A model generated the notes under the pieces. That model ran no database searches. It saw only the letters and a program-made list of their open reading frames with translations, and was not told the origin of the DNA. A stretch of 64,000 bases of DNA, from contig CAZJUI010000002.1 in NCBI GenBank assembly GCA_964549185.1, forward strand, positions 28,409 through 92,408. Reading direction: 5' to 3'. Source of the stretch: Candidatus Woesearchaeota archaeon. Its GTDB lineage: Archaea; Nanobdellota; Nanobdellia; SCGC-AAA011-G17; JAGVZF01. The position numbers were made by a program, and so were the translations under genes. This document shows, one piece after another, positions 4,150-33,882 of the stretch. The number at the start of each line of letters is the position of its first letter. Within the stretch, counting starts at the first letter, position 1.

Positions 4150-4904
4150 CAAAAATAATCTATGATGATAAAGTGCTTGTAAAAGGAGCTGTAACAAACT
4201 CTTTGGATAGTTTGACTAATGAACTCTCTAATGATCCTGTAATAAGCTCTAAAGTTTACGATATGTTAACCAATAAAGAATCAAAACAGGAAGATTCTGT
4301 TAAGAAAATAATTGCTGACGAAATGCATGAATTATATATTAAAGCTTCATTATCTCCATTAGAAGAATCCTATAAATTGTTTAAAGATAAGTTAGGCGAA
4401 CTTACAACAAAACACCTATTTTACATTCTAGCTCAAAATTACCCAAAATCTTCTGTTGAACATATTAATAATATCCTTAAAAATGATAAAAATATTGTTT
4501 TGTTGACAAGAATGCCATTACTTTTTTTTAATGCTATTCACACGATGGATGAAAATCAGGAATTTAAAACAGCAATTGAAAAAGAAAGATTAAAAGTCCT
4601 TACACCTTACAATTTCTATCGCAAACATTTCCTAGTTGATGAAAAAAATGCAATAACTCGAGGTTCCATAGATTCAGCATTACTCTTACAGGCATCAAAA
4701 GAATTTCAAGAAGAAAAAAACAATACATTGTACGTTAGTAGTCATCTGAGAGATGTATTATTAATGAGGGAAAATATTACAGAAGATTTAAAAAATACCA
4801 AGATAGTAAAGCATGTTGGAAGTCAACACCCTCCAAAATGTAAATTATTGGATGGATGTTTCCTAGATTTGCTTGAGCTTGAATCATATTTGAAAACAGC
4901 ATGA
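4146..4904 (+). CDS. Hypothetical protein, member 2 of the tandem paralog set.
   Basis: ORF of 252 aa. The start and stop overlap on both sides, which suggests translational coupling. Confidence 0.55.
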   Translation: MTKIIYDDKVLVKGAVTNSLDSLTNELSNDPVISSKVYDMLTNKESKQEDSVKKIIADEMHELYIKASLSPLEESYKLFKDKLGELTTKHLFYILAQNYPKSSVEHINNILKNDKNIVLLTRMPLLFFNAIHTMDENQEFKTAIEKERLKVLTPYNFYRKHFLVDEKNAITRGSIDSALLLQASKEFQEEKNNTLYVSSHLRDVLLMRENITEDLKNTKIVKHVGSQHPPKCKLLDGCFLDLLELESYLKTA

Positions 4905-6569: not shown

Positions 6570-7061
6570 TTATTTAGGCTTTGCTGGTGTTAATACACTA
6601 AATGTATCACTTTCTGTTACTGGACTTCCATTAATCATCGCTGTTAATGTTGCTTTATAATTTCCAGGCTGTAAACTTGTTGGTGTATTCCATTCAATTC
6701 CATATAATGTACTTCCCGGATTATATCCATATCCAAAATCATTTACTAGATTTATTAAAATATCATTGTATGGTTTTGGATTGTTAAAACTTCCTTGGCT
6801 TCTTGTACATTCATAGCTTCCATCATTTGCTATCTCACATTTAATAATATCTAACTTAGCACCTAAATTTTCTATAGTTAAAGTTGCACTAGTTACTTGT
6901 CCTGTAAAGTTAACATCAAAGTCTACTGTTTGTCCTTTGTTGACATCTGCAATATTGCTTATGCTAGAAGTTACAGCTTTCGCTCCTCCAGCCAAGAATA
7001 AAGCACTTATAACTAACACAGAAAATATCGTTCCTATAATCTTTTCTTTCATTGCTATCAC
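6570..7061 (-). CDS. Secreted GYGY-motif protein. This is the short paralog of 361..1494.
   Basis: ORF of 163 aa with a signal peptide ending GGAKA. It carries the DVNKG, GSYECTR, FGYGYNPGS, WNTP and FSVLTP motifs. Confidence 0.7.
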   Translation of the reverse strand: MIAMKEKIIGTIFSVLVISALFLAGGAKAVTSSISNIADVNKGQTVDFDVNFTGQVTSATLTIENLGAKLDIIKCEIANDGSYECTRSQGSFNNPKPYNDILINLVNDFGYGYNPGSTLYGIEWNTPTSLQPGNYKATLTAMINGSPVTESDTFSVLTPAKPK

Positions 7062-7170
7062 CCCCGTTCATAAAGAACATATTTGTTCAAAATAACGATA
7101 TATAAGCTTTATGCATTACTGATTTCACTTTGCATTAAAATGACATGATTTTTAACTAAAAGTAAGTATT

Positions 7171-7203
7171 AATTTTGAACTAAAACTAATTCTTTTTTAC
7201 TTT
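7171..7203. repeat. Direct repeat, copy 1 of 33 bp. It duplicates the 3' end of the wHTH gene 8599..8922.
   Basis: aatTttgaactaaaactaattcttttttacttt is repeated at 8601..8633 with one mismatch. Confidence 0.8.
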
Positions 7204-7883
7204 AATGCTTTATCACTAGAAACAATTTTACAAATTTTTCCTACTTGCTCTATATCTACATCAAATTTCTTTTCTATGAATACACCTTTAAAAGAATCAA
7301 TAAAATTTTTATCGTTTATAGTATGATCTAACCTCTTAAGATTTTCCTTTATTTTATCTAAATATCCAATAAATAAAAACCTCTTTATTAATCCTAAATC
7401 CGTATCTTTTGCTAATGCTGCTATATCTCTGAAATCTGTCAATCTTCCAGAATGAATTTTCATAACTATCAATAATTCTTTTATCGGTATTTTACCTGAA
7501 ACCTCTTTTTCAACTCCTATGATTTTCCTTTTGATTGAATTATCAGCAAGTAATCTATAACTAAATGAGGCATTTGTTGTTCTCGAGGCTAAGGCATCTA
7601 TTAATATATCAATACTTGCATTATCTTTTTCATATCTCATAAATCTTGAAGAATAAATATTTTTTAGTTCTTTTGAAATAACTTTCTTAAATTTTTCTTT
7701 TGTTAATATTTGTTCAAATTTATTTAAATCTGCACTTTCAATAACAATATCTGCATCGACAGAAAACCTATGCTTGAATGAAGAAACTGCATATCCACCG
7801 ACAATTATAAAATCTAACTTTTTTTCTATAAATTTTTGTAAAATATAAAATATCTCATTTTCTTTCTTTATCAGTTCTTCCAT
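7197..7883 (-). CDS. AbiEii/AbiGii-like nucleotidyltransferase (DUF1814-like toxin).
   Basis: ORF of 228 aa. It has the NTase-fold motif IIVGGYAVSSFKHRFSVDADIV, which matches the GG-T/Y-A...RFSxDxD pattern. It sits directly downstream of a wHTH gene in the same orientation. Confidence 0.55.
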   Translation of the reverse strand: MEELIKKENEIFYILQKFIEKKLDFIIVGGYAVSSFKHRFSVDADIVIESADLNKFEQILTKEKFKKVISKELKNIYSSRFMRYEKDNASIDILIDALASRTTNASFSYRLLADNSIKRKIIGVEKEVSGKIPIKELLIVMKIHSGRLTDFRDIAALAKDTDLGLIKRFLFIGYLDKIKENLKRLDHTINDKNFIDSFKGVFIEKKFDVDIEQVGKICKIVSSDKALK

Positions 7884-7890
7884 TTTATCA

Positions 7891-8529
7891 CTATAAAAAG
7901 TTAGTTTCTCTATATTTTATATTTAAGTTTTTATTATACATTTCATTAATCATTTCTAAAGCTGGTTCAAAATTATATATATTTTTTTGCATAAATCTTA
8001 TTGTTTCATCCAATGGTTCAACCAAAAAATTACCTTTTTTAACATATTTAAATCTTTCTAAAATCTCTGGAGCAAAGAAAACTTTTTTTTTCGAGTTAAC
8101 TTTTAAATCTAATTTTTTACAATATTCTAAAAAGATATCATAATCCGATTTCTTAATTTTAATAAATATTGGATAATATTCTTTGTATCTGGCTACATTA
8201 TATCTTCCTTCAGTCCAGACATAGACTGCATCTGTTTTTGTAAAACAATATTCTATTCCAAATAAACTTAAAATAGAATAATAATGACTAATATCATTAA
8301 AATTATTTTGTATAAACTTTAATATTATTTTGTATGTTGAATTTTCTTTTTGTAAGGTGACTCCGCGCCATCTTTCCTTAAAAATGCCTTCTTTTATTAA
8401 TTCTTCGATCCATTTATGTGTCCAGCCATATGACAATCCAATTCTTTTGGAAATAGAGCTCACGCTATCTTGGTCTCTTGCAGATATCAATATTTTCATT
8501 ACATATGGATTTATCAAGTCAAATTTCAT
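7891..8529 (-). CDS. AbiEi-like antitoxin or transcriptional regulator with an N-terminal wHTH.
   Basis: ORF of 212 aa with an N-terminal HTH (ISKRIGLSYGWTHKWIEELIKEGIF). It is 8 nt upstream of the NTase gene. Confidence 0.45.
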   Translation of the reverse strand: MKFDLINPYVMKILISARDQDSVSSISKRIGLSYGWTHKWIEELIKEGIFKERWRGVTLQKENSTYKIILKFIQNNFNDISHYYSILSLFGIEYCFTKTDAVYVWTEGRYNVARYKEYYPIFIKIKKSDYDIFLEYCKKLDLKVNSKKKVFFAPEILERFKYVKKGNFLVEPLDETIRFMQKNIYNFEPALEMINEMYNKNLNIKYRETNFL

Positions 8530-8598
8530 ACTATCACTATAATGATACTATATAAAAACCTTTCTATTATCTTATTTTATATAAAATACTTTAAATTA

Positions 8599-8922
8599 TC
8601 AATGTTGAACTAAAACTAATTCTTTTTTACTTTGTTTCTCAATTTCTGAATCAACAACACTCCAATAATAATTAATAAATTTTTCAACTTGCGGATTTTC
8701 CCTGTTTAATTTATACATCTTTGCTTTTCCAACATCTCTCGTATGATTAACTATCTTTCTCTTAACAAAATCTTTCCATATTTCTTTTAAACTAGTATAA
8801 CTTATTTCTGAAAACTTAGCAATATCTCTCATAGAATAATCAAATTCAGAATGAACTATCAAAAAGTTCCAGATCCTGTTTCTTACAGTATTTCCTTCTA
8901 GTTTTAAAAACAATTTTTTCAT
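8599..8922 (-). CDS. Winged-helix transcriptional regulator.
   Basis: ORF of 107 aa with an HTH-like core (MRDIAKFSEISYTSLKEIWKDF). Its last 10 codons lie inside repeat copy 2. Confidence 0.45.
   Translation of the reverse strand: MKKLFLKLEGNTVRNRIWNFLIVHSEFDYSMRDIAKFSEISYTSLKEIWKDFVKRKIVNHTRDVGKAKMYKLNRENPQVEKFINYYWSVVDSEIEKQSKKELVLVQH
8601..8633. repeat. Direct repeat, copy 2 of 33 bp.
   Basis: It matches 7171..7203 and encodes ...KKELVLVQH plus the stop of 8599..8922. Confidence 0.8.
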
Positions 8923-9031
8923 TTTCTAAGTTTTTTCTTAGATTCTTATTAGAAATTAATTGACCCTTTTTTTTCATTAATATAACTTTCTTCAAGTAAT
9001 TTTTTCTCTTGAAATGTTAAGATATTATATT

Positions 9032-9427
9032 TCATATTTTTATTCCAAGTTTAATTTCGTCATATCTTAATATAGGTTTTGCAAGTTTTCTACTTGTTTT
9101 TTCTTTTATGATCTCTATTAATCCTACATCTTTTAATATTTTTATATCAGTGGTAATGCTTTTTCTATCTCTTTTTGCTATTCTTGAAAGCTCATAAATT
9201 GATTTTGGTTTATTTAATTTTATTAAATGTAAAAGTTCTAATCTCTTTTTAGTTAAAGTTTTTTTGAACAATTCTAGATTATCAAAAGATACACTAGTCT
9301 CACTCTTCGGAAATATGCCTTTATCTAAATCTTTAAATACTTTCTCAGTCCTATCCCAAAATGCATTTGAGGGTTCTATTCTTACATTAATTTCCTTTGT
9401 TTTTATTACCATTTTCCATTTCTCCAA
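9032..9427 (-). CDS. HTH transcriptional regulator. It is the putative antitoxin-like partner of 9387..9716.
   Basis: ORF of 131 aa with a C-terminal wHTH (KPKSIYELSRIAKRDRKSITTDIKILKDVGLIEI). It overlaps the upstream small ORF by 41 nt. Confidence 0.45.
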   Translation of the reverse strand: MEKWKMVIKTKEINVRIEPSNAFWDRTEKVFKDLDKGIFPKSETSVSFDNLELFKKTLTKKRLELLHLIKLNKPKSIYELSRIAKRDRKSITTDIKILKDVGLIEIIKEKTSRKLAKPILRYDEIKLGIKI

Positions 9428-9716
9428 CTTCTTTTCTAAATTTTTTTATTAAATCATATATATTTGTAAATTCATATTTGAATTCTTTTTCATAAATATG
9501 TTTATGATGTCCTTTTGAAGCCTCATTATCATATCCCAATATTCTTTTTCCATTTCTTATTAAAACCAATGCATATCTTATTCCTTCTGGGAATTTATCA
9601 CTCTTAGGAACCTTTGTAATTTTTATTTCTGTTATATAATTATTAAAAACTTTTTTAGTATGGTAAATCACTTTAGTTGTAATTACTATCACCATACAGG
9701 GTAAAGTATAACCCAT
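9387..9716 (-). CDS. Small hypothetical protein. It is the putative toxin-like partner of the HTH gene.
   Basis: ORF of 109 aa with a conserved-looking His cluster (ASKGHHKHIYEKEF). It overlaps the following HTH regulator, which is a two-gene arrangement typical of TA modules. Confidence 0.35.
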   Translation of the reverse strand: MGYTLPCMVIVITTKVIYHTKKVFNNYITEIKITKVPKSDKFPEGIRYALVLIRNGKRILGYDNEASKGHHKHIYEKEFKYEFTNIYDLIKKFRKEVGEMENGNKNKGN

Positions 9717-9828
9717 ATATAAACTTTATTATTCTATAAAATATTAATTAAAACATTCAATAAAAACCCTTATTTCCCTAGACCTTACGTCCACAACATT
9801 TATATACTACTTCGTCTTACTTAGTAAT

Positions 9829-10086
9829 ATGGAATCTATAACTATAAAACTGGACAACGAATTTGCTAAAGATGTGAAGAAAGCTCTAAAAAAACATAAC
9901 TATACTACAAAAACAGAATTCATAAGAGAATCAATGAGGCTTAGATTAAAAGACTTAGAAAAGGAAGAAGCATTAAAACGCGTAAATGCAATGTACGGAT
10001 CTTTAAAACATAAAAAAATAACCGATAAAAGACTTCATGAAGCAAGACAAAGAGCAGTAGAAGAACTAGAGAAAGAACTTAAATAA
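9829..10086 (+). CDS. Ribbon-helix-helix (CopG/Arc-like) protein, antitoxin-like.
   Basis: ORF of 85 aa. N-terminus ITIKLDNEFAKDVKKALKK followed by helices, which is an RHS... RHH pattern. Confidence 0.5.
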   Translation: MESITIKLDNEFAKDVKKALKKHNYTTKTEFIRESMRLRLKDLEKEEALKRVNAMYGSLKHKKITDKRLHEARQRAVEELEKELK

Positions 10087-10480
10087 TTTCTTCAGGTTTT
10101 TTAGTCTCTACAATGTTAACCAATGCTTTAAAATGAGAATCTCTTGAAATCATTATTGCATCGTTATCTCTTGCAAGAATCGCTTGCCAAGCATCTCCTA
10201 TTGGAATTCTTTTCTGATAAGCTATTTGTTTTGCTTCTTTTAATTGCTCTTTTGTAGTATGAACATATCTAAGGTTATTTGGTTTAACAATTGTAAAAAT
10301 AGAGTTAATTTCATCCATGCTACAACCGAAATCTCTTAATTCTTTTATATGAATATTGGAATATATAATTCTAGAATCTTCTTCAATAATCTTTATTATT
10401 AACTTTAAAGCACCCTCTCCATTCTCTCCCCGCTTCATACCAAAATCCAGCCAAATTGATGTATCAAGATTATATATCAT
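10079..10480 (-). CDS. PIN-domain nuclease, VapC-like.
   Basis: ORF of 133 aa with the motifs LDTSIWLDF, DAWQAILA and ISRDSHF. It is convergent with the RHH gene and overlaps it tail-to-tail by 8 bp. Confidence 0.6.
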   Translation of the reverse strand: MIYNLDTSIWLDFGMKRGENGEGALKLIIKIIEEDSRIIYSNIHIKELRDFGCSMDEINSIFTIVKPNNLRYVHTTKEQLKEAKQIAYQKRIPIGDAWQAILARDNDAIMISRDSHFKALVNIVETKKPEEII

Positions 10481-16162: not shown

Positions 16163-17518
16163 ATGAAAAAATCAATAAAGCCAATAAAGATAATAATCTT
16201 AATAGTTTTAGTTATTTTAGTTTTAACATTATTTTATTTAAATATAAAGCCATTTGGTGGATCAGTAAGATATTCAAAAATAATAAATCAAGAAAATACA
16301 TTATTACCTCAAGATAGGATATCTGAAATTAAAACAGAAGGAAATATAAAATACCAAGAAGCTTTAGCAGATTTAATTTATACAGATATTTCAACTCCAG
16401 GTGATATTAATGAAGACATATTACTTAAAATAAGATTTAAGGATAATTTTCCTAAAGATTCTAAAATATCTGTTGGAATACAAGATAAAGAAAATCATTA
16501 TAATCAACAAACAGCTTATATTAAAGTTCCAAATGAAAAAGTAATCTCTTCAGATAGTATAAATCAAATTCCAGAAAATTCAATAGTCTACATTGATGAT
16601 ATAAATTTGATAGTTAATAATCAAAACATAATATCAGGGGAAATAAAACCATTAGACCTTCAACCTTTTTTAAGAGGAAGTTATAATATCTTAATATATT
16701 TAGATGGAGATTTATCATTTACAGTCAAACAACAAGACCTAAATTGGTATAATAATACAGATGAAACGAATATTACATTAAAAGACAGTAAAGATAATAT
16801 ATTAACATCTGTAACTATAGAAGATGATAATGATAATAAAAATGATAGAAAATTACATGACCCAAGACAAGCAACATTAACATATCCCAATTTACAGGGA
16901 ATATACAAAATAGAAATAAGAAACAATGAAGATTCTATAATAACAGAAATTCAATCATCAACAGATAAAATAATATTTTTAAATAAATTATTTTTAGCAG
17001 CCTCAAAAAATTATGTTAATAATGATGATCAATTTTCACAAGTTTATTTTAATATAATAAAAGACACAAACATATCTTTGTCAACACCACACAAACAATA
17101 CGAACAAAACATTCAAATCAACAACATCTCATATAAAGTTCCATATCAACAAAAGAATACAATAACACTACCCCAAGGTTCATACAATCTCTTATCATTC
17201 AACTCTAATATTATAGTAGAAGGTAACACTTACTTTGCATTTAATAAAGATTCATTATTCAATCCATATAAGTTTACAATAACAAAGAACATAGCGGAGG
17301 CAGATTACATAATAACAAACTATATTCCTCCAATAGAAGACAATGGATGGTTAATATCAACTGTTAAGTTTAATCTTAGTGATTTATACATAAAAGACAA
17401 CAAATTAAACGTTTTAATTAACATTCCTCATCTAGCTAAGAATGAAACTAAGAACTACACTATTCCTATTGATTACATTGAACTAGAATATTACAAAAAG
17501 CCTTTATTCTCTAGATAG
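16163..17518 (+). CDS. Membrane-anchored or secreted hypothetical protein, rich in Asn and Ile. Its 3' 250 bp is the founding copy of a three-copy repeat.
   Basis: ORF of 451 aa with an N-terminal TM segment (IKIIILIVLVILVLTLFYL). Confidence 0.55.
   Translation: MKKSIKPIKIIILIVLVILVLTLFYLNIKPFGGSVRYSKIINQENTLLPQDRISEIKTEGNIKYQEALADLIYTDISTPGDINEDILLKIRFKDNFPKDSKISVGIQDKENHYNQQTAYIKVPNEKVISSDSINQIPENSIVYIDDINLIVNNQNIISGEIKPLDLQPFLRGSYNILIYLDGDLSFTVKQQDLNWYNNTDETNITLKDSKDNILTSVTIEDDNDNKNDRKLHDPRQATLTYPNLQGIYKIEIRNNEDSIITEIQSSTDKIIFLNKLFLAASKNYVNNDDQFSQVYFNIIKDTNISLSTPHKQYEQNIQINNISYKVPYQQKNTITLPQGSYNLLSFNSNIIVEGNTYFAFNKDSLFNPYKFTITKNIAEADYIITNYIPPIEDNGWLISTVKFNLSDLYIKDNKLNVLINIPHLAKNETKNYTIPIDYIELEYYKKPLFSR
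17265..17518 (+). repeat. Repeat copy 1, about 250 bp. It is the intact 3' coding end of 16163..17518.
   Basis: Homologous to 18247..18486 and 19489..19733. Confidence 0.85.
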
Positions 17519-17570
17519 AAAGGTTTATAAGTAAGATAATCTTACAGTAAGATTAGGAGGTGAAAGGAAA

Positions 17571-17840
17571 ATGGAAGTCGAAACAACTAAAATGTCATCT
17601 AAAGGACAAATTGTAATACCCCAAGATATAAGGGAAGATATAGAAGCTACAGAAGGAACTATATTTGCTGTTACACATAATAAAGATACAATAATTTTAA
17701 AAAAAATGGAAAAGCCATCAAAAGAATTTATATTAAAAGAAATCGAGAAAATGGCCAAAGAAAATAGAAAATACTTAGAAAGCAAAGGATTTACAGAAAA
17801 AGATGTTATGGAAAAAATCCTAAAATCAAGAGGAAAATAA
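17571..17840 (+). CDS. AbrB/MazE/SpoVT-type antitoxin, VapB-like.
   Basis: ORF of 89 aa with the swapped-hairpin motif KGQIVIPQDIREDI. It has a strong SD (aggaggtga). Confidence 0.6.
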   Translation: MEVETTKMSSKGQIVIPQDIREDIEATEGTIFAVTHNKDTIILKKMEKPSKEFILKEIEKMAKENRKYLESKGFTEKDVMEKILKSRGK

Positions 17841-17843
17841 ACT

Positions 17844-18245
17844 ATGAATGTGGTCTTAGATACAAACGTTCTTATATCTTTAAGTGTATGGGAAACAAGC
17901 GAAGCAAAAAAATTACTTGATGAGTTAGTTCATAAAAATATAAACATATTTTCCTCAGAAGAAATTAAATTTGAATATGTAAAAGTTTTAAGAAGAGATT
18001 TTGAATTATCAGATAATAGAATTGAAGAAATGTTAGAAAAAATATTTTTCTATATAGATTTCGTAGAACCAGCAGAAAAAGTAGATATTGTAAAAGATGA
18101 TCCTACAGATAATAAGATAATAGAATGTGCAATAGCTTCTAATTCTGAGTATATAATAACTTATGACAAACATTTATTAGATATTAAAAAATTTAGAAAC
18201 ATCAAGATGATAAAACCAAAAGAAGCATTTCAAGTTATAAAATAA
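17844..18245 (+). CDS. PIN-domain toxin, VapC.
   Basis: ORF of 133 aa with motifs MNVVLDTNVLI and IITYDKHLL. It lies 4 nt after the antitoxin. Confidence 0.7.
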   Translation: MNVVLDTNVLISLSVWETSEAKKLLDELVHKNINIFSSEEIKFEYVKVLRRDFELSDNRIEEMLEKIFFYIDFVEPAEKVDIVKDDPTDNKIIECAIASNSEYIITYDKHLLDIKKFRNIKMIKPKEAFQVIK

Positions 18246-18246
18246 T

Positions 18247-18486
18247 CATATAAGTTTACAATAACAAAGAACATAGCAGAAGCAGATTACATAATAACAA
18301 ACTATCAGCCTCCAATAGAAGACAATGGATGGTTAATATCAACTGTTAAGTTTAATCTTAGTGATTTATACATAAAAGACAATAAAACGTTTTAATTAAC
18401 ATTCCACATCTAGCTAAGAATGAAACAAAGAACTACACAATTACATAGAATTAGAATATTACAAGAAACTCTTATTCTCTAGATAA
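18247..18486 (+). repeat. Repeat copy 2. It is a decayed copy of the 3' end of 16163..17518, with deletions and a frameshift.
   Basis: About 90% identical to copy 1 but has two internal deletions. It starts immediately after the PIN stop codon. Confidence 0.85.
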
Positions 18487-18529
18487 AAACCGAAACATTT
18501 ATATAACAGTTGTTATATTATTATTACAT

Positions 18530-19060
18530 ATGTTACAAAATTATAACAAGTGGAAATTATTAAAAGTATTTTTTGAAGATCCTTTAAAAGAAGGTGGTTT
18601 TCAATTAAGAGAACTTAGCAGAAAAATAAAACTAGCTCCAATTTCAGTAAAACTATATCTAAATGAATTAGTTAAAGACAATTTAATAAAAAAATCAACG
18701 CTTCATAATTACCCAATATATCAAGCTAATCGAGATAATGAAAAATTTCTGCTATTTAAGAAAATAGATACAATTATTTTAATAAAAGAGTTTAATCTAA
18801 TAGATTACCTAAATGATAAATGTCTGCCATCCGTAATAATTCTTTTTGGAAGTGCCTCAAAAGGTGAAGATTTAAAAGATAGTGATATAGATATATTTGT
18901 TCAGGCAAAAGAATCAAAATTAGATTTACAAGAATTCGAAACTAAATTAAAACGAAAGATTAATATATTTTTCTCTGATAACTTTAATAATTTAAGTAAA
19001 GAATTAAAAAACAATATGTTGAACGGCATTATTTTAAAGGGATATTTAAAGGTATTTTAG
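18530..19060 (+). CDS. Minimal nucleotidyltransferase (MNT-type), the partner of a HEPN-like protein.
   Basis: ORF of 176 aa with the motif IILFGSASKGEDLKDSDIDIFV, which matches GSx10DxD. It has an N-terminal HTH-like region. Confidence 0.7.
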   Translation: MLQNYNKWKLLKVFFEDPLKEGGFQLRELSRKIKLAPISVKLYLNELVKDNLIKKSTLHNYPIYQANRDNEKFLLFKKIDTIILIKEFNLIDYLNDKCLPSVIILFGSASKGEDLKDSDIDIFVQAKESKLDLQEFETKLKRKINIFFSDNFNNLSKELKNNMLNGIILKGYLKVF

Positions 19061-19474
19061 ATGATAGAAGGAATAATAAGGATAACTCCAGATAAAGAGA
19101 AAGCAAAATCTATAAAGAAGATGTCAGAGATAACATCAGAAATGATAAAAACTATAGATATAGAAAGATTTCCCTCAAATATATTAAAAGATTATTATGA
19201 TGTAATTAGAGAATTGATAACAGCGATTCTCCTTTTAGACGGATATAAATTTATTGGAGAAGAAGCTCACAAAAAATCAATACAATATATAGAACAAAAT
19301 TATAATGAATTTACAAAATATGAAATAGTAATGTTAGATGATTTAAGAATATTAAGGAATAAAGTAGCATATGATGGATTTTTTATAAAGAAGGAATACA
19401 TTCAAGAAAGAATAAAAGAAATACTCAATATTATAAATAAGTTAAATAAGATAATAATTGCAAAATTAGAATAA
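19061..19474 (+). CDS. HEPN-like protein, the partner of the MNT.
   Basis: ORF of 137 aa starting 1 nt after the MNT stop. It is helical, but the canonical Rx4-6H motif is not clear. LRNKVAYDG is the only candidate. Confidence 0.45.
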   Translation: MIEGIIRITPDKEKAKSIKKMSEITSEMIKTIDIERFPSNILKDYYDVIRELITAILLLDGYKFIGEEAHKKSIQYIEQNYNEFTKYEIVMLDDLRILRNKVAYDGFFIKKEYIQERIKEILNIINKLNKIIIAKLE

Positions 19475-19488
19475 TAATCCATATAAAT

Positions 19489-19733
19489 ATCAAATAACAA
19501 AGAACATAGCAGAAGCAGATTACATAATAACAAACTATCAGCCTCCAATAGAAGACAATGGATGGTTAATATCAACTGTTAAGTTTAATCTTAGTGATTT
19601 ATACATAAAAGACAATAAACTAAACGTTTTAATTAACATTCCTCATCTAGCTAAAAATGAAACAAAGAACTATACTATTCCTATAGATTACATAGAGCTA
19701 GAGTATTATAAGAAGCCTTTATTCCAACGATAA
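19489..19733 (+). repeat. Repeat copy 3. It is a near-intact copy of the 3' end of 16163..17518.
   Basis: It could still encode ...ITKNIAEADYIITNYQPPIEDNGWLISTVKFNLSDLYIKDNKLNVLINIPHLAKNETKNYTIPIDYIELEYYKKPLFQR*. Copies 2 and 3 share variants (gcagaagcag, cagcctcc) that are absent from copy 1. Confidence 0.85.
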
Positions 19734-19825
19734 TATTAAGAAATATATCTTGCTATCACTTCTCACATCTCACACATTTCACATATGCGCGTAAAGTTTA
19801 TAAATGAGTATTATTTAGTATATTT

Positions 19826-20065
19826 ATGCAACAAGAATCAATAGTTCAAATGCTTGTATCTGGTCAAAATGACCTAGAATGGTTCGAACAAAACCAAGAT
19901 TATCTTAAATCTGAGTATAATAATAAGTTTATTGCTTTTTATGATAAGAAAGTTATAGATTCTGATGCTAATTTAGATAGATTAATGAAAAAATTAGAAA
20001 AAAAAGAAATAAACATTTCTAGAGTATTTATAGAATTTATCAGTAAAGTAAAAACAATATTATAA
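19826..20065 (+). CDS. Small hypothetical protein, DUF5678-like and antitoxin-like.
   Basis: ORF of 79 aa. The pattern NNKFIAFYDKKVIDSDANLDRL resembles small archaeal antitoxin-like proteins. Confidence 0.35.
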   Translation: MQQESIVQMLVSGQNDLEWFEQNQDYLKSEYNNKFIAFYDKKVIDSDANLDRLMKKLEKKEINISRVFIEFISKVKTIL

Positions 20066-20321
20066 AGTGATTACAATGAATGAAAGAATACCATTACAAA
20101 TAATTAGAAGAAGACTGATTTTAACATCAGTTATTGAATATAAAAACCTAAGAAGTACTAGAAAATATATGTAAATTACAATAGACAATGGAAGTCATAA
20201 TTCTTATATCAGTGATAAAGATGTTAAAAAATTACAAATACCAATTAGAGATAAATTAGCAATCGAAGAGGTCGATCTTGGTGGCTCAAGATTCAAACAA
20301 GTTTCCCTTCCAAGAATAACT

Positions 20322-20525
20322 ATGTATATCCTAAAAGAAAATCGTGATTATTTGATATTAAACACTTCATTATCTGCCTTAAAGACAACTAAATCTTCTG
20401 AGCAAAAAATTCAAATAGCACAAATATTACCATCAATATTAGGTTTAGACTTTCTTGAAGACCAAAAACTTTCTTTACATGTTATTTTAAATGAAAACAT
20501 TGCATATTTGGAGGTAGAAAAATGA
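20322..20525 (+). CDS. Hypothetical protein, possibly the remnant of a longer disrupted gene.
   Basis: ORF of 67 aa. The reading frame stays open upstream to 20175 without an ATG. Confidence 0.3.
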   Translation: MYILKENRDYLILNTSLSALKTTKSSEQKIQIAQILPSILGLDFLEDQKLSLHVILNENIAYLEVEK

Positions 20526-20872
20526 AACAAAATAGCAAAAGTTATGCAAGCAAATTTTGGAAAGATTGGTTAGAAGCAGATCTTTTAAAAAGAGAAGACA
20601 TGATCAAAAAATTGCCAATAGTTAAAAATATATGGGATATAAAAAAACTCCCAAAAAAGATAAGAGAACATTCATTTGCTTTATTGCTTCTTGGTTTTTT
20701 TGAAGATTTAGAATCCGCAGTTTATACAAAGATAGAACTTGAAGAAAATAAGAAAAAAGATTTGGAAATTATTAAAAAATTCAAATCAGATAGTACTATG
20801 ACTGAAGAAGACGCAATTAGATTAGGAAGAGAATTAAATAAAAAGATAGCGAAAAGAAGGAAATTCCAATAA
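20522..20872 (+). CDS. Hypothetical protein.
   Basis: ORF of 116 aa, rich in Lys. It overlaps the previous stop by 4 nt. Confidence 0.35.
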   Translation: MKQNSKSYASKFWKDWLEADLLKREDMIKKLPIVKNIWDIKKLPKKIREHSFALLLLGFFEDLESAVYTKIELEENKKKDLEIIKKFKSDSTMTEEDAIRLGRELNKKIAKRRKFQ

Positions 20873-20907
20873 AAAACCTTATAAAACCTATCTTCTCCAG
20901 TATATAC

Positions 20908-21303
20908 ATGAAAAAACAAGAAATATTAGAATTAGTAAGCTACACATTTCAAACCTTACTAGTTACATATCTAGTATTAATTTTATTAGAAGAACTAAAG
21001 AAAGGTTTTGTTTCAGCTTATTTTAACTCAAATTACTTATTAGTCATAGTTATCATTCTAGGAATAGTAACTGTTTTATTCTATAAAGAAGAAAAAAAAT
21101 TCACTTTAGAAGATAAAATAACAAAAAAAGATTATATTTTAATTTCTTTACTTTCAATAGCAGGAATTATTATAATTTTTATAAAAACTAAAAATCTAGG
21201 TTTTCTTAGGTATATAATTTCAATAATAACAGGAATATTAATTTTTTTATTATCATTGCTAGTTTTACAAGAAGATGAGAAAGAAGAAACAGAATGGGTT
21301 TAA
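20908..21303 (+). CDS. Small membrane protein.
   Basis: ORF of 131 aa with 3 or 4 TM helices. Its stop abuts the next start. Confidence 0.4.
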   Translation: MKKQEILELVSYTFQTLLVTYLVLILLEELKKGFVSAYFNSNYLLVIVIILGIVTVLFYKEEKKFTLEDKITKKDYILISLLSIAGIIIIFIKTKNLGFLRYIISIITGILIFLLSLLVLQEDEKEETEWV

Positions 21304-22883: not shown

Positions 22884-23804
22884 ATGGAAGAAAAGCGCAT
22901 AATAATACCAAGACCATATAGAAGAAAAAAAATTCAAAATCCAAGGCAATCAAGAGATTATGCATGGTTCTTGGGAGTAATGGCAGGAGATGGTTCTTCT
23001 ACCTATGGGGATAATACTACAAATAATGCAATAAGATTAACAGTTACCTCTGAAGAATTCAGAAACGAATTTGCAAGAAAAGGACAAGAATTATTTGGAT
23101 TAGAAGCAAGAGGATATAAAATTTTCATATCAGAAATAAATCCTAATTGGAAAGATACGTATTATGCAGGATTTAATTCTGCTAATCTTGTTGATTTATT
23201 GGGGGATTTTAGATCAGATAAATGGGTAGATACAATAAAAAATAAACATCTATGGGTTACAGATAAACAAGGATTTATTTGGGGATTTCTTAGTGGATAT
23301 TTCGATTCAGAAGGGAGTGTAAGTAATCCATATAAATTAAGAAGAAAAGCAAAAAATGGGTATGAAACACGAATTCGTTTCGCAACTGCATATAGAAATG
23401 CCGCTGAATTTACTGTAAATTTATTAAATCGAGTAGGAATTAAAAGTTATATAGAAAAAAGTGCTAGCAAAAGAGAAGGAATATCATCCGTAACATTTAC
23501 TAAGTTAGAATATATGAAAAGATTTTCTGAAAATGTTTATTCATTTGTTCAAGAAAAAGAAGAAAGATTAAAATTTTATAGAAACACCAAATTAGTAACA
23601 GGACCATCTCTTGATGTAATAGAAGCTTATCATTTAACAATGAAATTAAGAAAGGAAACTGGATTTGGTTCAAGAAAATTAGCTAAACATCCATTATTAG
23701 AAAAATACAATCTTTCACATACTACAATTAATAATTGGATTTATGCAGGTAATAATCCCACAATTAATGGAAGACATTATACATATTTTAGTTTGGTTGA
23801 TTAA
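22884..23804 (+). CDS. Free-standing protein with two LAGLIDADG motifs, homing-endonuclease-like.
   Basis: ORF of 306 aa carrying AWFLGVMAGDGSS and WGFLSGYFDSEGSV, about 100 aa apart. Confidence 0.6.
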   Translation: MEEKRIIIPRPYRRKKIQNPRQSRDYAWFLGVMAGDGSSTYGDNTTNNAIRLTVTSEEFRNEFARKGQELFGLEARGYKIFISEINPNWKDTYYAGFNSANLVDLLGDFRSDKWVDTIKNKHLWVTDKQGFIWGFLSGYFDSEGSVSNPYKLRRKAKNGYETRIRFATAYRNAAEFTVNLLNRVGIKSYIEKSASKREGISSVTFTKLEYMKRFSENVYSFVQEKEERLKFYRNTKLVTGPSLDVIEAYHLTMKLRKETGFGSRKLAKHPLLEKYNLSHTTINNWIYAGNNPTINGRHYTYFSLVD

Positions 23805-23849: not shown

Positions 23850-25286
23850 ATGGAATCCGCAGGAAAAGGAACATTATACTTAATAATAGCACAAGTTGTA
23901 ATGATAATCTCAGGTTATCTTACACATTTTGTTCTAGGTAGATATCTAGGACCTGAAAGCTATGGAACTTACGGATTAATATTAACAATAGCCACAACAT
24001 TAAACTTAATCTTAACTTCTGGAATTCCAACCTCAGTTTCAAAGTTTATTGCAGAACAAGAATCAAGATCCAAATCAATTTTAAAAAAAGCATTAAAAGT
24101 ACAATTAATATTCTCAGTTATAATTTCTTTATTATTCTTAGCATCAGCTCATTTAATATCAACATTATTGCAAGATGCTTCATTAACAAATTATTTTAGA
24201 TTAATGTCAATAGTTATCATTCCATATTCCTTATTTTCAATTTTAATTGGTTATTTTAATGGGAAAAGATTATTCAAAACCCAAGCAATATTAAATATTT
24301 TTTATTCAATTGCAAGAGCTGCAGCAATTATAGGTTTAGCCTTCTTATTCCATCTATATGGAACAATTATTGCATTTATGGTATCTCCAATATTAATATT
24401 AATCATAGCATTATATCTATCAAGAAAAGATAAAACCCAAGAAGATTCCATTTCATCCAAAACATTAATAAAATATGCAATTCCAATTTCAATTTTTGCA
24501 GTAATCTTTAATTTTGTACAAACTTTAGATTTATATTTTGTTAAATCTTTGTTAAAACAAGACATCTTTACAGGTTATTACACAGCTTCAATAACAATTT
24601 CCAGAGTTCCATTGTATATTTTAACTTCGTTATCCATAGTTATACTTCCTTTAATATCAAATGCATTAAATGACAAGGAAAGAACAAAAAGATTAATCAA
24701 CTCAGCAACAAAATATACCCTAATTATTTTAATGCCTTTAACAATTTTATTTGCTACAACATCAGAAAGAATAATTTCATTATTTTATTCCAATGTTTAC
24801 TCTCCTGCTTCAACTTCATTATCAATTTTAATAATTGCCATAGCCTTCTTTACAATATATTCATTTTTATCCAATATTCTAAACGGAGCAGGAAAACAAA
24901 GAGTTCCAATGTATATTATTCTAGTCTTATTAGTCATAGATTTTATTTTACTTAATTTCCTAGTTCCAAAATATCAATTGGTTGGAGCAGCAATATCTAC
25001 ATTAATAGTAAGTTTTCTAGCTTTTTTATTATCATCAATCATAGTTTACAAAGAATTCAAAGCTTTAATTTCATTTAGATCTTTAGTAAGAATATTATTT
25101 GCATCTTTAATACTATTTGCTCCATTATTCTACACTTTAAACAAATACTTCTTGCCATTGGAGTATTTAATATTAACTTTACTATATTTAATAATCTTAT
25201 ATTTATTCAAGGAAATAAGAAAACAAGATATCAAAGAATTACTTCCAACTAAATTTCATGGAATATTAAACTTCATTCCCGAATGA
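23850..25286 (+). CDS. Polysaccharide biosynthesis flippase, Wzx/MOP superfamily.
   Basis: ORF of 478 aa with about 12-14 TM helices, typical of MATE/Wzx-like proteins. It is in the glycosylation locus. Confidence 0.7.
   Translation: MESAGKGTLYLIIAQVVMIISGYLTHFVLGRYLGPESYGTYGLILTIATTLNLILTSGIPTSVSKFIAEQESRSKSILKKALKVQLIFSVIISLLFLASAHLISTLLQDASLTNYFRLMSIVIIPYSLFSILIGYFNGKRLFKTQAILNIFYSIARAAAIIGLAFLFHLYGTIIAFMVSPILILIIALYLSRKDKTQEDSISSKTLIKYAIPISIFAVIFNFVQTLDLYFVKSLLKQDIFTGYYTASITISRVPLYILTSLSIVILPLISNALNDKERTKRLINSATKYTLIILMPLTILFATTSERIISLFYSNVYSPASTSLSILIIAIAFFTIYSFLSNILNGAGKQRVPMYIILVLLVIDFILLNFLVPKYQLVGAAISTLIVSFLAFLLSSIIVYKEFKALISFRSLVRILFASLILFAPLFYTLNKYFLPLEYLILTLLYLIILYLFKEIRKQDIKELLPTKFHGILNFIPE
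25246..25286. repeat. Direct repeat, copy 1. It is the 3' end of the flippase gene.
   Basis: ctaaatttcatggaatattaaacttcattccCgaatGa is repeated at 25966..26006 with two mismatches. Confidence 0.8.
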
Positions 25287-25289
25287 TTA

Positions 25290-25676
25290 TTAATAAGATA
25301 TAACTTTAACATCATCAATTCTAGAAAAATGTTGTTTATTATTTGTTATTATTATATTACAATTATTTTTTAACATTATTGCAGATATTAAACAGTCATT
25401 TTGTCCGATCATTTTTCCCTTTTTAGCTAGATCAGATAGAATTTTAGCAGCATTTCTCCCCCAATTATTATTACATAAGATTTTTATAGTTTCAAAAAAG
25501 GATAAAGCAATTTCTTCTTCATTTTTATTAAATTTTTTATTATAAATTCCAAAAAAAACTTCAAAAACATTAATCTCTGTAGTTGCAATGTCTTCTTTAT
25601 ATCTTTCTATAACATTTTTAGCTTCTTTATTTCCATTTAAAAAATCAATAATGCAATCAGAGTCTATACATATCAT
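25290..25676 (-). CDS. PIN-domain toxin, VapC.
   Basis: ORF of 128 aa with motifs MICIDSDCIIDFL, NDCLISAIML and ITNNKQHF. Confidence 0.65.
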   Translation of the reverse strand: MICIDSDCIIDFLNGNKEAKNVIERYKEDIATTEINVFEVFFGIYNKKFNKNEEEIALSFFETIKILCNNNWGRNAAKILSDLAKKGKMIGQNDCLISAIMLKNNCNIIITNNKQHFSRIDDVKVISY

Positions 25677-25912
25677 TTTTTCTTATACAATCTTAAAAGT
25701 TCTTTACTTGAATTGTCTCTAAGTTTTAAAATATCTCCCTTCATTTTTTTTATTTCAGTTTCTGGCGTATCTTTCCAAGCGCCGGCAAATTTCATTACAT
25801 CTCCCTTTTTTGCAATTCTTCTAATAACATCAGAAAAACTTTCTTCTTCATTTTTAGTTTTTTTTAAAATGTCATACACATCATCCATTATTGATATAGT
25901 TTTAGTTCCCAT
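25673..25912 (-). CDS. VapB-type antitoxin. The true start is probably at MGTK or MDDV rather than the MCMCMCM in the ORF track.
   Basis: ORF of 79-85 aa that overlaps the PIN start by 4 nt. The start of the ORF-track version runs through an (ATACAC)n microsatellite. Confidence 0.45.
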   Translation of the reverse strand: MGTKTISIMDDVYDILKKTKNEEESFSDVIRRIAKKGDVMKFAGAWKDTPETEIKKMKGDILKLRDNSSKELLRLYKKK

Positions 25913-25934
25913 ACACATACACATACACATACAT
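25911..25934. repeat. Hexanucleotide microsatellite, (ATACAC)3 plus ATACAT.
   Basis: The sequence reads atacacatacacatacacatacat. It sits at the junction between the TA cassette and the right-hand flanking repeat. Confidence 0.9.
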
Positions 25935-25965
25935 CTATATAAACTTTTCTATCAAAGAACTTCTC

Positions 25966-26006
25966 TCATCTAAATTTCATGGAATATTAAACTTCATTCC
26001 TGAATA
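25966..26006. repeat. Direct repeat, copy 2. It duplicates the 3' end of the flippase gene.
   Basis: It matches 25246..25286. Confidence 0.8.
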
Positions 26007-26066
26007 ACCACTTTTAAAAAGTAACAATAGAAAACTTTATAAGCTAATAATTTTCATAAAGAACCC

Positions 26067-33253: not shown

Positions 33254-33290
33254 TTTCTGATTTTAAGTTACAACAAAACTATTAAGCTTT
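33254..33290. repeat. Direct repeat, copy 1 of about 35 bp, with core agttacaacaaaactatt.
   Basis: It is repeated at 33844..33882. It overlaps the stop of 33282..33530. Confidence 0.65.
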
Positions 33291-33530
33291 AACACCCTTT
33301 TTAGGTATTAATTGTATTTTAAAAGGTAATTCTACATTAATATCATGTAATTTTTCTGTTCTTTTTTTAAAATTGAATACAGCTATCCCAGTTGTTTTTT
33401 TTGTTTTTTTATCAATCCTTTCAAAAATATCATTACCCAAGTTTTTAAAATAACCTTCAGTATATTTTCCCATATTTATTTCTAGAAAATCTCCTTCATC
33501 ATCATAATATAAATTTAAATTGTTTTTCAT
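33282..33530 (-). CDS. DUF2283-like small protein, antitoxin-like.
   Basis: ORF of 82 aa. MKNNLNLYYDDEGDFLEINMGK matches the YDxExDxLxI signature of DUF2283. Confidence 0.45.
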   Translation of the reverse strand: MKNNLNLYYDDEGDFLEINMGKYTEGYFKNLGNDIFERIDKKTKKTTGIAVFNFKKRTEKLHDINVELPFKIQLIPKKGVKA

Positions 33531-33814
33531 TTTATTTTATCTGTATAAAAGCTTGTAATTATAAATCCTTTTCCATTTAAATACTTTACTGCTACTAACA
33601 AATATTTTATCCTATCCTTATTGTATTTATAATAAACATTGACATTTTTATCAGTTTTTGATTCAACAACAATATTTGGGTTAATTAAAAAATCTTTAAT
33701 TTCTTCTAATCTATTAGACATTTCTGGATGTTTCAATATATGGTTATATCTTTCATCAGTCAGATAGATAATTCTTCCATTTTCATCTTTTATTTCAGAT
33801 ATAATCATTGTCAT
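33527..33814 (-). CDS. Small toxin-like protein, DUF4258-like. It is the partner of the DUF2283-like gene.
   Basis: ORF of 95 aa. It overlaps the downstream gene by 4 nt in a two-gene operon arrangement. Confidence 0.35.
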   Translation of the reverse strand: MTMIISEIKDENGRIIYLTDERYNHILKHPEMSNRLEEIKDFLINPNIVVESKTDKNVNVYYKYNKDRIKYLLVAVKYLNGKGFIITSFYTDKIK

Positions 33815-33843
33815 ATAAAAAATATAAAATCTTTTAAAACTAT

Positions 33844-33882
33844 CTTTTCTTAATTTCTAGTTACAACAAAACTATTTAAACT
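33844..33882. repeat. Direct repeat, copy 2.
   Basis: It matches 33254..33290. Confidence 0.65.

Follow-up and report, generated by a model that had tools for sequence, protein, structure and literature searches.

Chromosomal toxin-antitoxin (TA) modules have been called mobile on the basis of their phylogenetic distribution, most of them carry neither transposase nor integrase, and their movement between genomes is a long-standing gap. Integrative elements are known to occupy the 3' ends of genes, for example the tRNA- and pNOB8-type elements of archaea and the ICE/CIME accretions at fda in streptococci. In homology-facilitated illegitimate recombination, one homologous anchor suffices to trap adjacent foreign DNA, and Campbell-type integration by a single crossover duplicates the homologous segment. 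Both are laboratory and natural-transformation outcomes in bacteria, and we know of neither as a recurrent route to TA arrays in archaea. To our knowledge, DNA uptake in DPANN archaea is uncharacterised and their routes of gene exchange are unknown. Restriction-modification (RM) systems can insert with a long target duplication (Nobusato et al. 2000, Gene 259:99; Furuta, Abe & Kobayashi 2010, PMC2853133), the two repeats being more alike than either is to the empty site; a life cycle using the repeats for amplification and release was proposed, and no archaeal case passed the screen (PMC2853133). No description of this type of insertion for TA systems was found in the searchable literature. 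Finally, chromosomal integron arrays are reported to be stabilised by TA cassettes (PMC11023631), and integrons are reported to occur in archaea (bioRxiv 10.1101/2022.02.06.479319).

The window analysed here (W) is a 64-kb stretch of DNA from a DPANN-like archaeon with a small genome; L001 denotes a relative, L003 a third contig and L007 a further gene X locus. The target gene, gene X, belongs to an uncharacterised family with no match in Pfam or NCBIfam and 35 homologues, mostly in DPANN; its AlphaFold model (pLDDT 86) matches only generic beta-sandwich structures. It lies in a glycan-biosynthesis cluster: glycosyltransferases are encoded upstream of it, and a flippase and an EpsG-like protein on the downstream side. 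The last ~255 nt of gene X, which form the most conserved part of the family (C-terminal domain), are present as three direct copies in total within the window (Table 1), with one TA operon in each of the two spacers. Alignment of the copies thus confirms the three-copy array of a gene 3' end with a TA pair per spacer that the first-pass annotation had described, except that copy 3 starts at 19476 and not at 19489. Copies 1 and 3 align over 249 nt without gaps at 92% identity, and copy 2 is 88% identical. A 74-nt block (17327-17400, 18309-18382 and 19542-19615) is common to all copies with no mismatch (0 matches in 100 shuffles; permutation p = 0.0045 for an identical run of this length between copies 1 and 3). 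Copy 2 begins within the TAA of the PIN gene, and a single nucleotide separates the TAA of ORF 19061..19474 from copy 3. The intergenic segment that follows copy 3 belongs to every repeat unit of L001, and its ATGCGCGTAAAGTTTATAAAT is a putative promoter.

Table 1. Features of the gene X locus and of the other repeat-flanked inserts in the window
Feature	Coordinates	Strand	Description
Gene X, target	16163..17518	+	451 aa; N-terminal membrane helix, then beta-sandwich domains
Tail copy 1	17261..17518	+	functional 3' end of gene X; TAG stop
Cassette 1	17519..18245	+	leader, MazE/AbrB antitoxin, PIN_3 toxin
Tail copy 2	18244..18486	+	non-coding remnant; TAA end; 4-nt and 10-nt deletions
Cassette 2	18487..19474	+	leader, wHTH-MNT, 137-aa partner
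Tail copy 3	19476..19733	+	remnant; reading frame intact; TAA stop
Post-tail intergenic segment	19734..19825	+	conserved; BRE/TATA-like ATGCGCGTAAAGTTTATAAAT at 19785-19805
Older inserted material	19826..20872	+	colinear with L001 6813-8288
DUF5678 gene	19826..20065	+	within older inserted material
Aspartyl-protease partner, decayed	remnant ORF 20322..20525	+	within older inserted material
116-aa ORF	within 19826..20872	+	part of older inserted material
p131	20908..21303	+	small membrane protein, 131 aa; far side of insertion site
Second instance	25229..26007	.	last 56 nt of flippase (23850..25286) repeated at 25950-26007
Inverted VapB + PIN operon	VapB 25673..25930, PIN 25290..25676		between second-instance repeats
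Third instance	7164..8633	-	40-nt repeat (29 nt perfect), 7164-7203 and 8594-8633
Third-instance cargo	7197..8529		wHTH + nucleotidyltransferase pair; Pfam matches below curated cut-offs
Fourth instance	33266..33876	-	perfect 18-nt direct repeat, 33266-33283 and 33859-33876
Fourth-instance cargo	PBECR2-type toxin 33527..33814; DUF2283-like partner 33282..33530		

Cassette 1 is a predicted type II TA module, in which a small DNA-binding antitoxin (17571..17840; PF04014 MazE_antitoxin, 26.6 bits for a curated cut-off of 24.7) is separated by 3 nt from the adjacent toxin (17844..18245; PF13470 PIN_3, 70 bits for a curated cut-off of 27). Its leader carries a TATA-like AAAGGTTTATAAG and a palindrome GTAAGATAATCTTAC, putative promoter and operator, respectively. 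The leader of cassette 2 also harbors a TATA box and a palindrome, TATAACAGTTGTTATA, and inspection of the sequence places a TATA-like box 25-45 nt before the ATG of each cassette. The first gene of cassette 2 (18530..19060) codes for a winged-helix and MNT nucleotidyltransferase protein (PF18765, 34 bits; PF01909, 33 bits). Its conserved 137-aa partner (19061..19474) has no match in Pfam, NCBIfam or PDB, a single-sequence AlphaFold model that is all-helical at pLDDT 44, and no clear HEPN Rx4-6H motif, the sequence reading RNKVAY. Of the families first proposed, AbrB-type plus PIN and MNT are supported by Pfam, whereas the HEPN-like nature of the partner finds no confirming family or structure match. 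MNT and partner stay paired in every context examined, and 734 homologues of the module are spread over archaeal phyla. In five different genomic contexts, the conserved unit starts ~45 nt before the ATG and runs to the stop codon of the partner. Neither a circular or excised form nor a donor element or vector was seen, and the module is absent from plasmid, phage and IMG/VR collections.

The array, together with older inserted material, separates gene X from p131, which lies 3.4 kb downstream in the window. In tblastn searches of more distant genomes, gene X is followed by p131 within 10-50 nt at about 30 of 41 loci. p131 was ancestrally the gene next to gene X, and their adjacency, seen here in a comparison at the family level, is the empty site. 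An uninterrupted allele, the existence of which had been raised in the first-pass annotation, is thus present in relatives, and the array is not an ancestral tandem gene duplication. Nor is the repeat dispersed: matches to an exact 24-mer are confined to this clade. In relatives, the same repeat flanks other TA cassettes. L001, whose flanks are 89-91% identical to the window, has tail copies at 1665-1964, 2867-3166, 3611-3910 and 4592-4891 and a short remnant at 6799-6845, and all its cassettes differ from those of the window (Bro-N, HicAB, DUF5678 with an aspartyl protease, and others). L003 harbors another cassette and a 30-nt remnant. In L007, a two-gene pair with sub-threshold Pfam matches, including a weak one to HEPN, sits at the junction of gene X and p131 without a repeat.

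Three further sites in the window (Table 1) and several additional DPANN genomes show the tail-cassette-tail layout as well. It occurs on both strands and also involves 5' ends, and its repeats measure 18-365 nt and are unrelated in sequence. The repeats of the second instance are 89% identical, both end with a stop codon, and their pN/pS is 0.26 (18 codons). The third-instance repeat duplicates the 3' end of the minus-strand gene 8599..8922. At five other sites, 5'-end duplications included, pN/pS ranges from 0.09 to 0.28 and premature stops are absent. The inserts flanked by such repeats are nearly all TA-like and are found in either orientation.

The divergence between tail copies is of the coding type. 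Their dN/dS is 0-0.15 and their dS 0.23-0.6, close to an orthologue, p512, taken for comparison (dS 0.43, ω 0.046). Even between two non-coding remnants of the same genome, 9 changes are synonymous and 0 are nonsynonymous. Frame and stop codon are kept in six of seven copies, and the peptides show 0-3 differences per 77 residues. As the copies differ almost only synonymously, each is likely to have once worked as a gene end in a separate lineage, and a divergence like that of orthologues suggests that they were brought by recombination rather than duplicated in place. The proposal that the cassettes did not arise by local duplication therefore holds, and the substitutions that copies 2 and 3 have in common, absent from copy 1, are real. 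Copy 3 of the window is nearer to the copies of L001 than to copy 1, its translation equals the functional tail of L001 over 77 of 77 codons, and it is probably a former resident gene end. Moreover, the copies are mosaic. Copy 2 matches copy 3 exactly over its left 117 nt and resembles copy 1 at its right end (TCTCTAGATAA), and identical runs are longest (117 and 112 nt) between adjacent copies. The four-gamete test is failed by 99 of 190 informative site pairs, a count inflated by homoplasy at AT-biased synonymous sites. Parentage switches at several different internal positions (Rm at least 9 in 231 nt, to which homoplasy may add). At the point where the repeat starts on its left, nucleotide identity between gene X alleles rises from ~60-75% to ~90%, and homology usable for recombination begins there.

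We consider it somewhat more probable than not, at roughly 55%, that recombination has stacked addiction modules behind a conserved surface-glycan gene, at its 3' end: homologous recombination would have imported the TA modules together with an allelic gene end, and addiction would guard them against deletion between the repeats. Each TA operon would have arrived linked to a foreign allele of the C-terminal ~85 codons of gene X, from a donor already bearing the cassette behind its own gene X, and would have been inserted by homologous recombination inside the conserved tail. We infer two possible intermediates: a circle looped out of another array and integrated by a single crossover, or a linear fragment whose two ends recombined through their tail homology. 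One tail copy would then complete gene X and the old functional tail would become a non-coding fossil downstream of the cassette, so that repeated rounds would produce the alternation of tails and cassettes. The first insertion at a new site was probably illegitimate or homology-facilitated, and in compact genomes it would survive only if the gene end were duplicated and not deleted. Direct repeats of 50-350 nt are normally unstable, as recombination deletes the DNA between them. TA modules would persist, since loss of the cassette would free the toxin (post-segregational killing), and this could account for the near-exclusive presence of TA-type genes between such repeats. One feature fits a strict order with the newest unit proximal poorly, namely that the middle remnant is decayed and the distal, supposedly oldest, one is intact.

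An unlikely alternative is site-specific integration by a tyrosine or serine recombinase acting in trans, the cassettes being non-autonomous CIME- or satellite-like mini-elements that accrete in tandem and whose attP carries a replacement 3' end of gene X. Like integrative elements, the array has direct repeats that partly copy its target gene, with the target itself intact. The layout is that of tandem accretion at a gene 3' end with the gene restored, a single central block is common to all copies, and copies from different alleles are expected if every element brings its own target surrogate. In addition, five different cassettes, from two genomes, have tail copies whose left edge lies no more than about 15 nt from AATCCATATAA; such a near-constant edge fits a site-directed step and would not be predicted from a purely random first insertion. 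However, Pfam reveals no integrase, transposase or resolvase domain in the array, its neighbours and other candidate ORFs of the window (selected ORFs in 64 kb of a 93-kb contig), and no integrase was found at the 41 gene X loci. The targets are unrelated, their repeats vary from 18 to 365 nt and no edge motif common to them was found, so that several different integrases would be required in a genome of roughly 1 Mb. The shared segment of 250-350 nt far exceeds the usual att core, and its copies are mosaic at variable internal positions. Serial insertion that leaves the target intact, as first suggested, is supported. A pNOB8/tRNA-type integrase, none of which was found among the window ORFs scanned, is not supported, given the unrelated gene ends, the variable repeats and the internal mosaicism.

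The near-constant edge at AATCCATATAA could also be one cassette boundary of an integron-like but integrase-independent platform for cassette capture in DPANN, or of one that depends on an unrecognised factor in trans, with the gene tail (and the promoter, in L001) acting as the recombination site that sets the boundaries. Addiction and defence modules would then be stockpiled at the edge of a hypervariable glycan island and shuttled between lineages as tail-plus-cassette units. We regard this as a speculative and rather improbable extension. A true integron array, to which the locus had been likened, is contradicted by the data: no intI, attI or Pc lies beside the array, whose upstream neighbour is gene X itself. 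Repeat and intergenic DNA show no attC-like folding on either strand (z = +0.94 and +0.22 versus shuffles), and the cassettes are not promoterless, each having its own TATA-like box.

Insertion in situ with a long target duplication of recipient sequence, followed by divergence through allelic replacement of the functional copy, appears improbable for gene X. It is documented for addiction-type modules without mobility genes, with variable repeats of 30-420 bp (PMC2853133, PMC3874152), the short perfect repeats of the window (29 of 40 nt; 18 nt) resemble fresh duplications, and the first event at any site requires some such mechanism. Against it, all pairs of copies in the gene X array, remnant-remnant pairs too, have dS of 0.23-0.3 with almost no nonsynonymous change. 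An allelic replacement between every two insertions and no neutral decay would be needed. Moreover, published RM repeats are most alike each other, whereas these are as far apart as orthologues, and copy 3 of the window translates identically to the functional tail of L001.

An assembly artefact, in which a metagenome assembler chained strain variants of one locus serially, is very improbable. The sequences do come from metagenome assemblies and the copies resemble functional alleles of different strains, but the junctions of toxin stop and internal tail start are unique sequences that must exist in reads, copy 2 bears frameshifting deletions, and the same architecture recurs at other loci and in separate assemblies made by different projects. 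The array is not an isolated case, nor does it reflect misassembly. Finally, we give almost no credence to the downstream tails being a silent reservoir for gene-conversion switching of the gene X C-terminus: partial copies behind an expressed surface-related gene and signs of gene conversion would suit it, but the nearly identical peptides mean that switching changes nothing, and the TA operons, the other sites and the 5'-end cases would be left unexplained.

Such arrays are a readable record of successive arrivals, in which the displaced gene ends are in-frame fossils of working alleles. They indicate that TA modules may spread by hitch-hiking on a piece of a conserved host gene with the help of the host recombination machinery, and putative addiction would account for the survival of TA modules, and little else, between long direct repeats. 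If general, the arrangement would provide a searchable signature of TA insertion (a small repeat-flanked insert at a gene end with a remnant of low dN/dS), a way to date and order insertion events, and evidence of frequent homologous recombination between lineages of DPANN archaea. For annotation, short and intact-looking gene-end fragments beside TA pairs may be by-products of insertion.

Compared with known systems, the array shares with chromosomal integrons small cassettes in line with a repeated element between them, rich in TA modules that would counter deletion; it differs in having no IntI or attI, a protein-coding tail (plus promoter in L001) as the repeat, and cassettes with their own TATA-like promoters. 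Like integrative elements at gene 3' ends, it leaves the target intact, has a displaced end beyond the insert and accumulates partial target repeats by tandem accretion. It differs from them by the lack of a detected integrase, inserts of 0.7-1.2 kb made of TA genes only, a mosaic shared segment of 250-350 nt and many unrelated targets in a small genome. Homology-facilitated illegitimate recombination and Campbell-type integration both predict hybrid repeat copies, and neither needs a dedicated recombinase. The RM systems are likewise small addiction-type modules that lack a mobility gene and lie between long direct repeats; these repeats vary in length, are single-copy at the empty site and often overlap a gene 3' end. 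Here, too, repeats above 30 bp (40-365 nt) match a single-copy empty site, at about 30 loci. The gene X copies are not duplicates of the recipient's own target, nor most similar mutually, although at 7164/8594 and 33266/33859 the short perfect repeats would qualify as own-target duplicates. The present cases differ from RM insertions by their TA cargo, their archaeal host and their arrays of two to five units, and by repeat copies that are diverged alleles with dN/dS well below 1 rather than fresh duplicates.

The last ~255 nt of the target gene, gene X, are present again twice further downstream, and each of the three tail copies is terminated by a stop codon. The 64-kb window holds these three copies and no more, with a chance expectation of none. 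The first-pass annotation had described three copies with one toxin-antitoxin (TA) pair per spacer, a layout that stands, although copy 3 starts at 19476 rather than 19489. Copy 2 overlaps the TAA of the PIN gene, and copy 3 begins 1 nt past the preceding TAA. The pair of spacer 2 had been labelled as MNT plus HEPN-like; the MNT nucleotidyltransferase was recovered, but a HEPN identity of its 137-aa partner was sought and could not be confirmed.

Coordinates and content of the array and of the other loci discussed (positions along the window unless a relative's locus, L, is named)
Feature	Position	Details
Three consecutive paralogous ORFs	3394-5698 (+)	251, 252 and 265 aa; N-termini alike (MKTHLIYDE...)
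TA-rich island	7197-10480	wHTH + nucleotidyltransferase pair first
TA-rich island, second part	9032-9716	TumE toxin with HVO_A0114-type partner
TA-rich island, third part	9829-10480	85-aa ORF, convergent with PIN gene
Gene with repeated 3' end	8599..8922	40-nt repeat past wHTH/nucleotidyltransferase pair
Gene X	16163..17518	Target gene
Tail copy 1	17261-17518	Functional end of gene X
Spacer 1	between tail copies 1 and 2	MazE/AbrB antitoxin + PIN_3 toxin
Tail copy 2	18244-18486	
Spacer 2	between tail copies 2 and 3	Winged-helix MNT nucleotidyltransferase + conserved 137-aa partner
Tail copy 3	19476-19733	
Post-tail intergenic segment	19734-19825	Follows tail copy 3
Aspartyl-protease gene	20066-20525	Broken by stop codons; 67-aa ORF left
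Same gene in L001	L001 7157-7606	Intact, 149 aa
UPF0175-containing block	L001 8310-9056	Extra in L001, missing from window
LAGLIDADG_3 ORF	22884-23804 (+)	306 aa, between EpsG-like gene and flippase gene
Flippase gene, last 56 nt repeated	25229-26007	Repeat past inverted VapB-PIN operon
Adjacent secreted-protein genes	36106-37583 (+)	Two ~60-nt segments in common, 87% identity
Shared segments	36859-36921 = 37364-37427; 37018-37078 = 37491-37551	
tRNA-like gene	~52130-52213 (-)	Acceptor stem GGGCAGT...ACTGCCC; 12-nt intron
Phd/Doc-like pair	52264-52822	Between the two tRNA loci
MazEF pair	52922-53456	Between the two tRNA loci
tRNA-Arg(TCT)	53597-53685 (-)	13-nt archaeal-type intron
Perfect 18-nt repeat	window	Either side of PBECR2/DUF2283-like pair
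L006		365 nt of gene tail around HEPN/MNT
L019		Glycosyltransferase gene 5' end, two repeats upstream; PIN and PBECR2/DUF2283 pairs between
L027		75 nt around HepT/MNT, then DUF5615 cassette
L037		Three tail copies; MNT/HEPN, AbiEii-containing pair, another MNT-containing pair
L047		25 nt of 5' end around wHTH-MNT module
L048/L049 (Methanoperedens contigs)	4344-4775	wHTH-MNT module adjoining IS200-type Y1 transposase gene
L051	3945-6753	wHTH-MNT cassette between two divergent RNase HII genes (225, 270 aa)

Gene X codes for a 451-aa product in which beta-sandwich domains come after an N-terminal membrane helix. No named family was matched, and regarding its function the structural model reaches a pLDDT of 86, yet structural matches are to generic beta-sandwiches only (TM <0.2). 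The gene is part of a glycan-assembly cluster: glycosyltransferase genes precede it, and genes for an EpsG-like membrane protein and a Wzx-type flippase follow it. The LAGLIDADG_3 ORF of this cluster, which among 41 gene-X loci occurs in just the window and L001 (86% identity), is probably a free-standing homing-endonuclease insertion. The window has ~27% G+C, and its nearest protein homologues belong to MAGs of Nanoarchaeota, Woesearchaeota and Pacearchaeota; with the archaeal-type intron of its tRNA-Arg, this makes a DPANN archaeon the most likely source. Three consecutive paralogous ORFs lie elsewhere in the window. Amber recoding of the TAG stop of gene X was rejected: the tRNA-Pyl(CUA) called by ARAGORN under default settings becomes an intron-containing tRNA-Arg(TCT) when introns are searched for, and TAG is an ordinary stop, ending 9 of the 61 longer window ORFs without any sign of recoding. 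A second intron-containing, tRNA-like gene was overlooked by default ARAGORN and by Rfam at gathering threshold, and no tRNA-fragment repeats were found around the MazEF/Doc cluster between the two loci.

Of the 41 loci with a gene X relative, about 30 have a homologue of p131, a 131-aa membrane protein encoded at 20908..21303 in the window, 10-50 nt after gene X. This adjacency, the empty site, spans DPANN, Methanoperedens, Methanosarcinales, Omnitrophota, Dehalococcoidia and CPR bacteria; window positions 17519-20907 therefore represent inserted material. A p131 protein search for close relatives, which returned matches of <=60% identity only and missed even a known 97% orthologue, gave no further array variants or near-identical empty site. 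In the Nanoarchaeota locus L007, a two-gene pair lies exactly at the gene X-p131 junction without a repeat; its Pfam matches are under curated cut-offs, the second gene being weakly HEPN-like only.

The closest gene X homologue (70% amino-acid identity) is that of L001, JGI contig Ga0209542_10007402, the sequence of which occurs again in an ENA assembly (L002). L001 and the window are 89-91% identical across >4 kb downstream of the array, and gene X is separated from the shared downstream genes by 7.2 kb in L001 versus 3.4 kb in the window. Alignment reveals that L001 has four full tail copies as well as a short remnant, with cassettes all unlike those of the window (Bro-N, HicB/HicA, DUF5678 + aspartyl protease (twice), PIN, DUF2283, UPF0175 and others). 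In L001 the DUF5678 gene has an intact aspartyl-protease partner, which in the window is disrupted. The L001 repeat unit runs ~100 nt past the stop codon into a conserved intergenic segment, and this extension harbors a BRE/TATA-like motif, TGCGCGTAAAGTTTATAAA, ~25 nt ahead of the ATG of every cassette; in the window, the segment follows tail copy 3 only. L003, a contig from Hainich groundwater, displays in order the gene X tail, a toxin + zinc-ribbon/AbrB cassette, a 30-nt tail remnant and an inverted PIN gene, which is preceded by the same segment, likewise inverted and a putative promoter. Over its first 1.1 kb (16163-17240), gene X is just 60-80% identical between the window and L001 (1-1660), and homology is undetectable in the DNA upstream of it; both relatives' contigs stop just upstream of gene X. 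Because this side is divergent whereas the side downstream of the array is ~90% identical throughout, the TA array lies on the margin of a hypervariable glycosylation island.

The divergence among tail copies is of a coding type. The frame is open across the 77 compared codons in every copy but window copy 2, and the stop codon is present in all. Nei-Gojobori counts over 76 codons gave 14.7 synonymous and 5.3 nonsynonymous substitutions between window copies 1 and 3 (dN/dS 0.07), 9 and 1 between the functional tail of L001 and its first remnant (0.02), and 9 and 0 between L001 remnants 2 and 3, both non-coding (0). Moreover, translated window copy 3 is identical to the L001 functional tail. 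No ORF or start codon able to express the remnants was found, and coding constraint therefore acted elsewhere, not at their present positions: for almost the whole period over which the copies diverged, each must have been the working end of a gene X in a lineage of its own. The proposal that the cassettes arrived with their own tail is supported by these low ratios and by orthologue-like dS, which is 0.23-0.6 between tail copies and 0.43 (dN/dS 0.046) for the orthologous 512-aa gene of the window and L001.

Recombination-driven import is the most economical reading of the array. The C-terminal domain is a natural homologous anchor, since it is the sole part of gene X staying ~90% identical between lineages, alleles falling to 60-75% upstream of ~17240. 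The entering unit would be the tail of a donor together with the cassette that follows it. It would come in either as a circle that had looped out between two repeats in another array, through one crossover, or as a linear fragment with tail copies at its ends, through two. Both routes would yield hybrid copies, keep gene X intact and strand the former functional tail downstream. The tail copies are also mosaic. The longest identical runs are between adjacent copies (117 nt for window 2/3, 112 nt for L001 1/2), the pattern that crossover or heteroduplex tracts would give. The four-gamete test was failed by 99 of 190 informative site pairs, with at least 9 recombination events in 231 nt, a count probably inflated by homoplasy at AT-biased third positions. 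A first event at a new site would require an illegitimate step, such as homology-facilitated illegitimate recombination or a 'long target duplication' mode, and in gene-dense genomes the survivors would be those duplicating a gene end instead of deleting it. As long direct repeats would invite deletion and addiction modules would be the cargo expected to resist it, the nearly exclusive TA content may be accounted for.

Alternatively, the boundaries could be set by a site-directed mechanism. Across five different cassettes the left edge hardly moves, staying within ~15 nt of AATCCATATAA, and the right edge in L001 recurs just beyond the TATA box, a regularity that leaves room for a capture platform, although we regard a dedicated, integrase-independent capture mechanism behind these boundaries as unlikely. 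Pfam scans of ~55 ORFs from the window and related loci detected no integrase, transposase or resolvase. The same scans speak against the integrase-type site-specific integration suggested by the first-pass annotation, and its comparison with an integron-like cassette array did not hold, as DNA folding of the repeat gave no attC-like or other single-strand structure and IntI is lacking. Single protein or profile queries found no match of the MNT module in PLSDB, INPHARED or IMG/VR, and no copy of the repeat or the module was found among virus and plasmid sequences. The synonymous-dominated divergence leads us to reject both an ancient tandem duplication and a copying in situ with later decay. 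Finally, the repeat is not the widespread dispersed element that would have undermined the cassette reading: among metagenomes an exact 24-mer matched just the L001 contig and L003, and searches of genome representatives and viral contigs gave no match.

The array is a real, recurrent and informative feature, and the same layout is found at three other sites of the window and in other DPANN genomes (L006, L019, L027, L037 and L047). At these sites, remnant and functional copies differ with pN/pS of 0.09-0.28 and zero premature stops; repeats at different targets share no common edge motif. The wHTH-MNT module has 734 homologues in various archaeal phyla, and its conserved span in five contexts extends from ~45 nt upstream of the ATG (TATA box + palindrome) to the stop codon of the partner. 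An IS200-type Y1 transposase is a possible alternative vehicle for it in the Methanoperedens lineage. In L051, whole-gene duplication of RNase HII around the cassette was rejected, the two genes being old paralogues with weak similarity over ~55 nt only; this could be an old case in which a complete replacement gene came with the cassette, or coincidence. The repeats at 36859-37551 were likewise discarded as cassette boundaries, being paralogous segments of two secreted proteins, a partial duplication unrelated to TA cassettes. The window also contains a TA-rich island.

No published account of this layout for TA systems was found in the open-access literature, a scope that is no proof of novelty. 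Integrative elements accreting in tandem at gene 3' ends have a similar layout, but the present array is without integrase, and TA-rich integron arrays are similar, but the array has no IntI, attC or promoterless cassettes. The closest described phenomenon is the 'insertion with long target duplication' of RM systems, addiction-type modules without mobility genes that lie between direct repeats of variable length (30-420 bp), often overlapping gene ends, for which a life cycle built on the repeats has been suggested and which are reported in bacteria only (PMC2853133, PMC3874152). The array differs from these insertions in its cargo, TA instead of RM, and in its archaeal rather than bacterial host; moreover, the TA units here build arrays, and their repeats are diverged alleles, not fresh duplicates.
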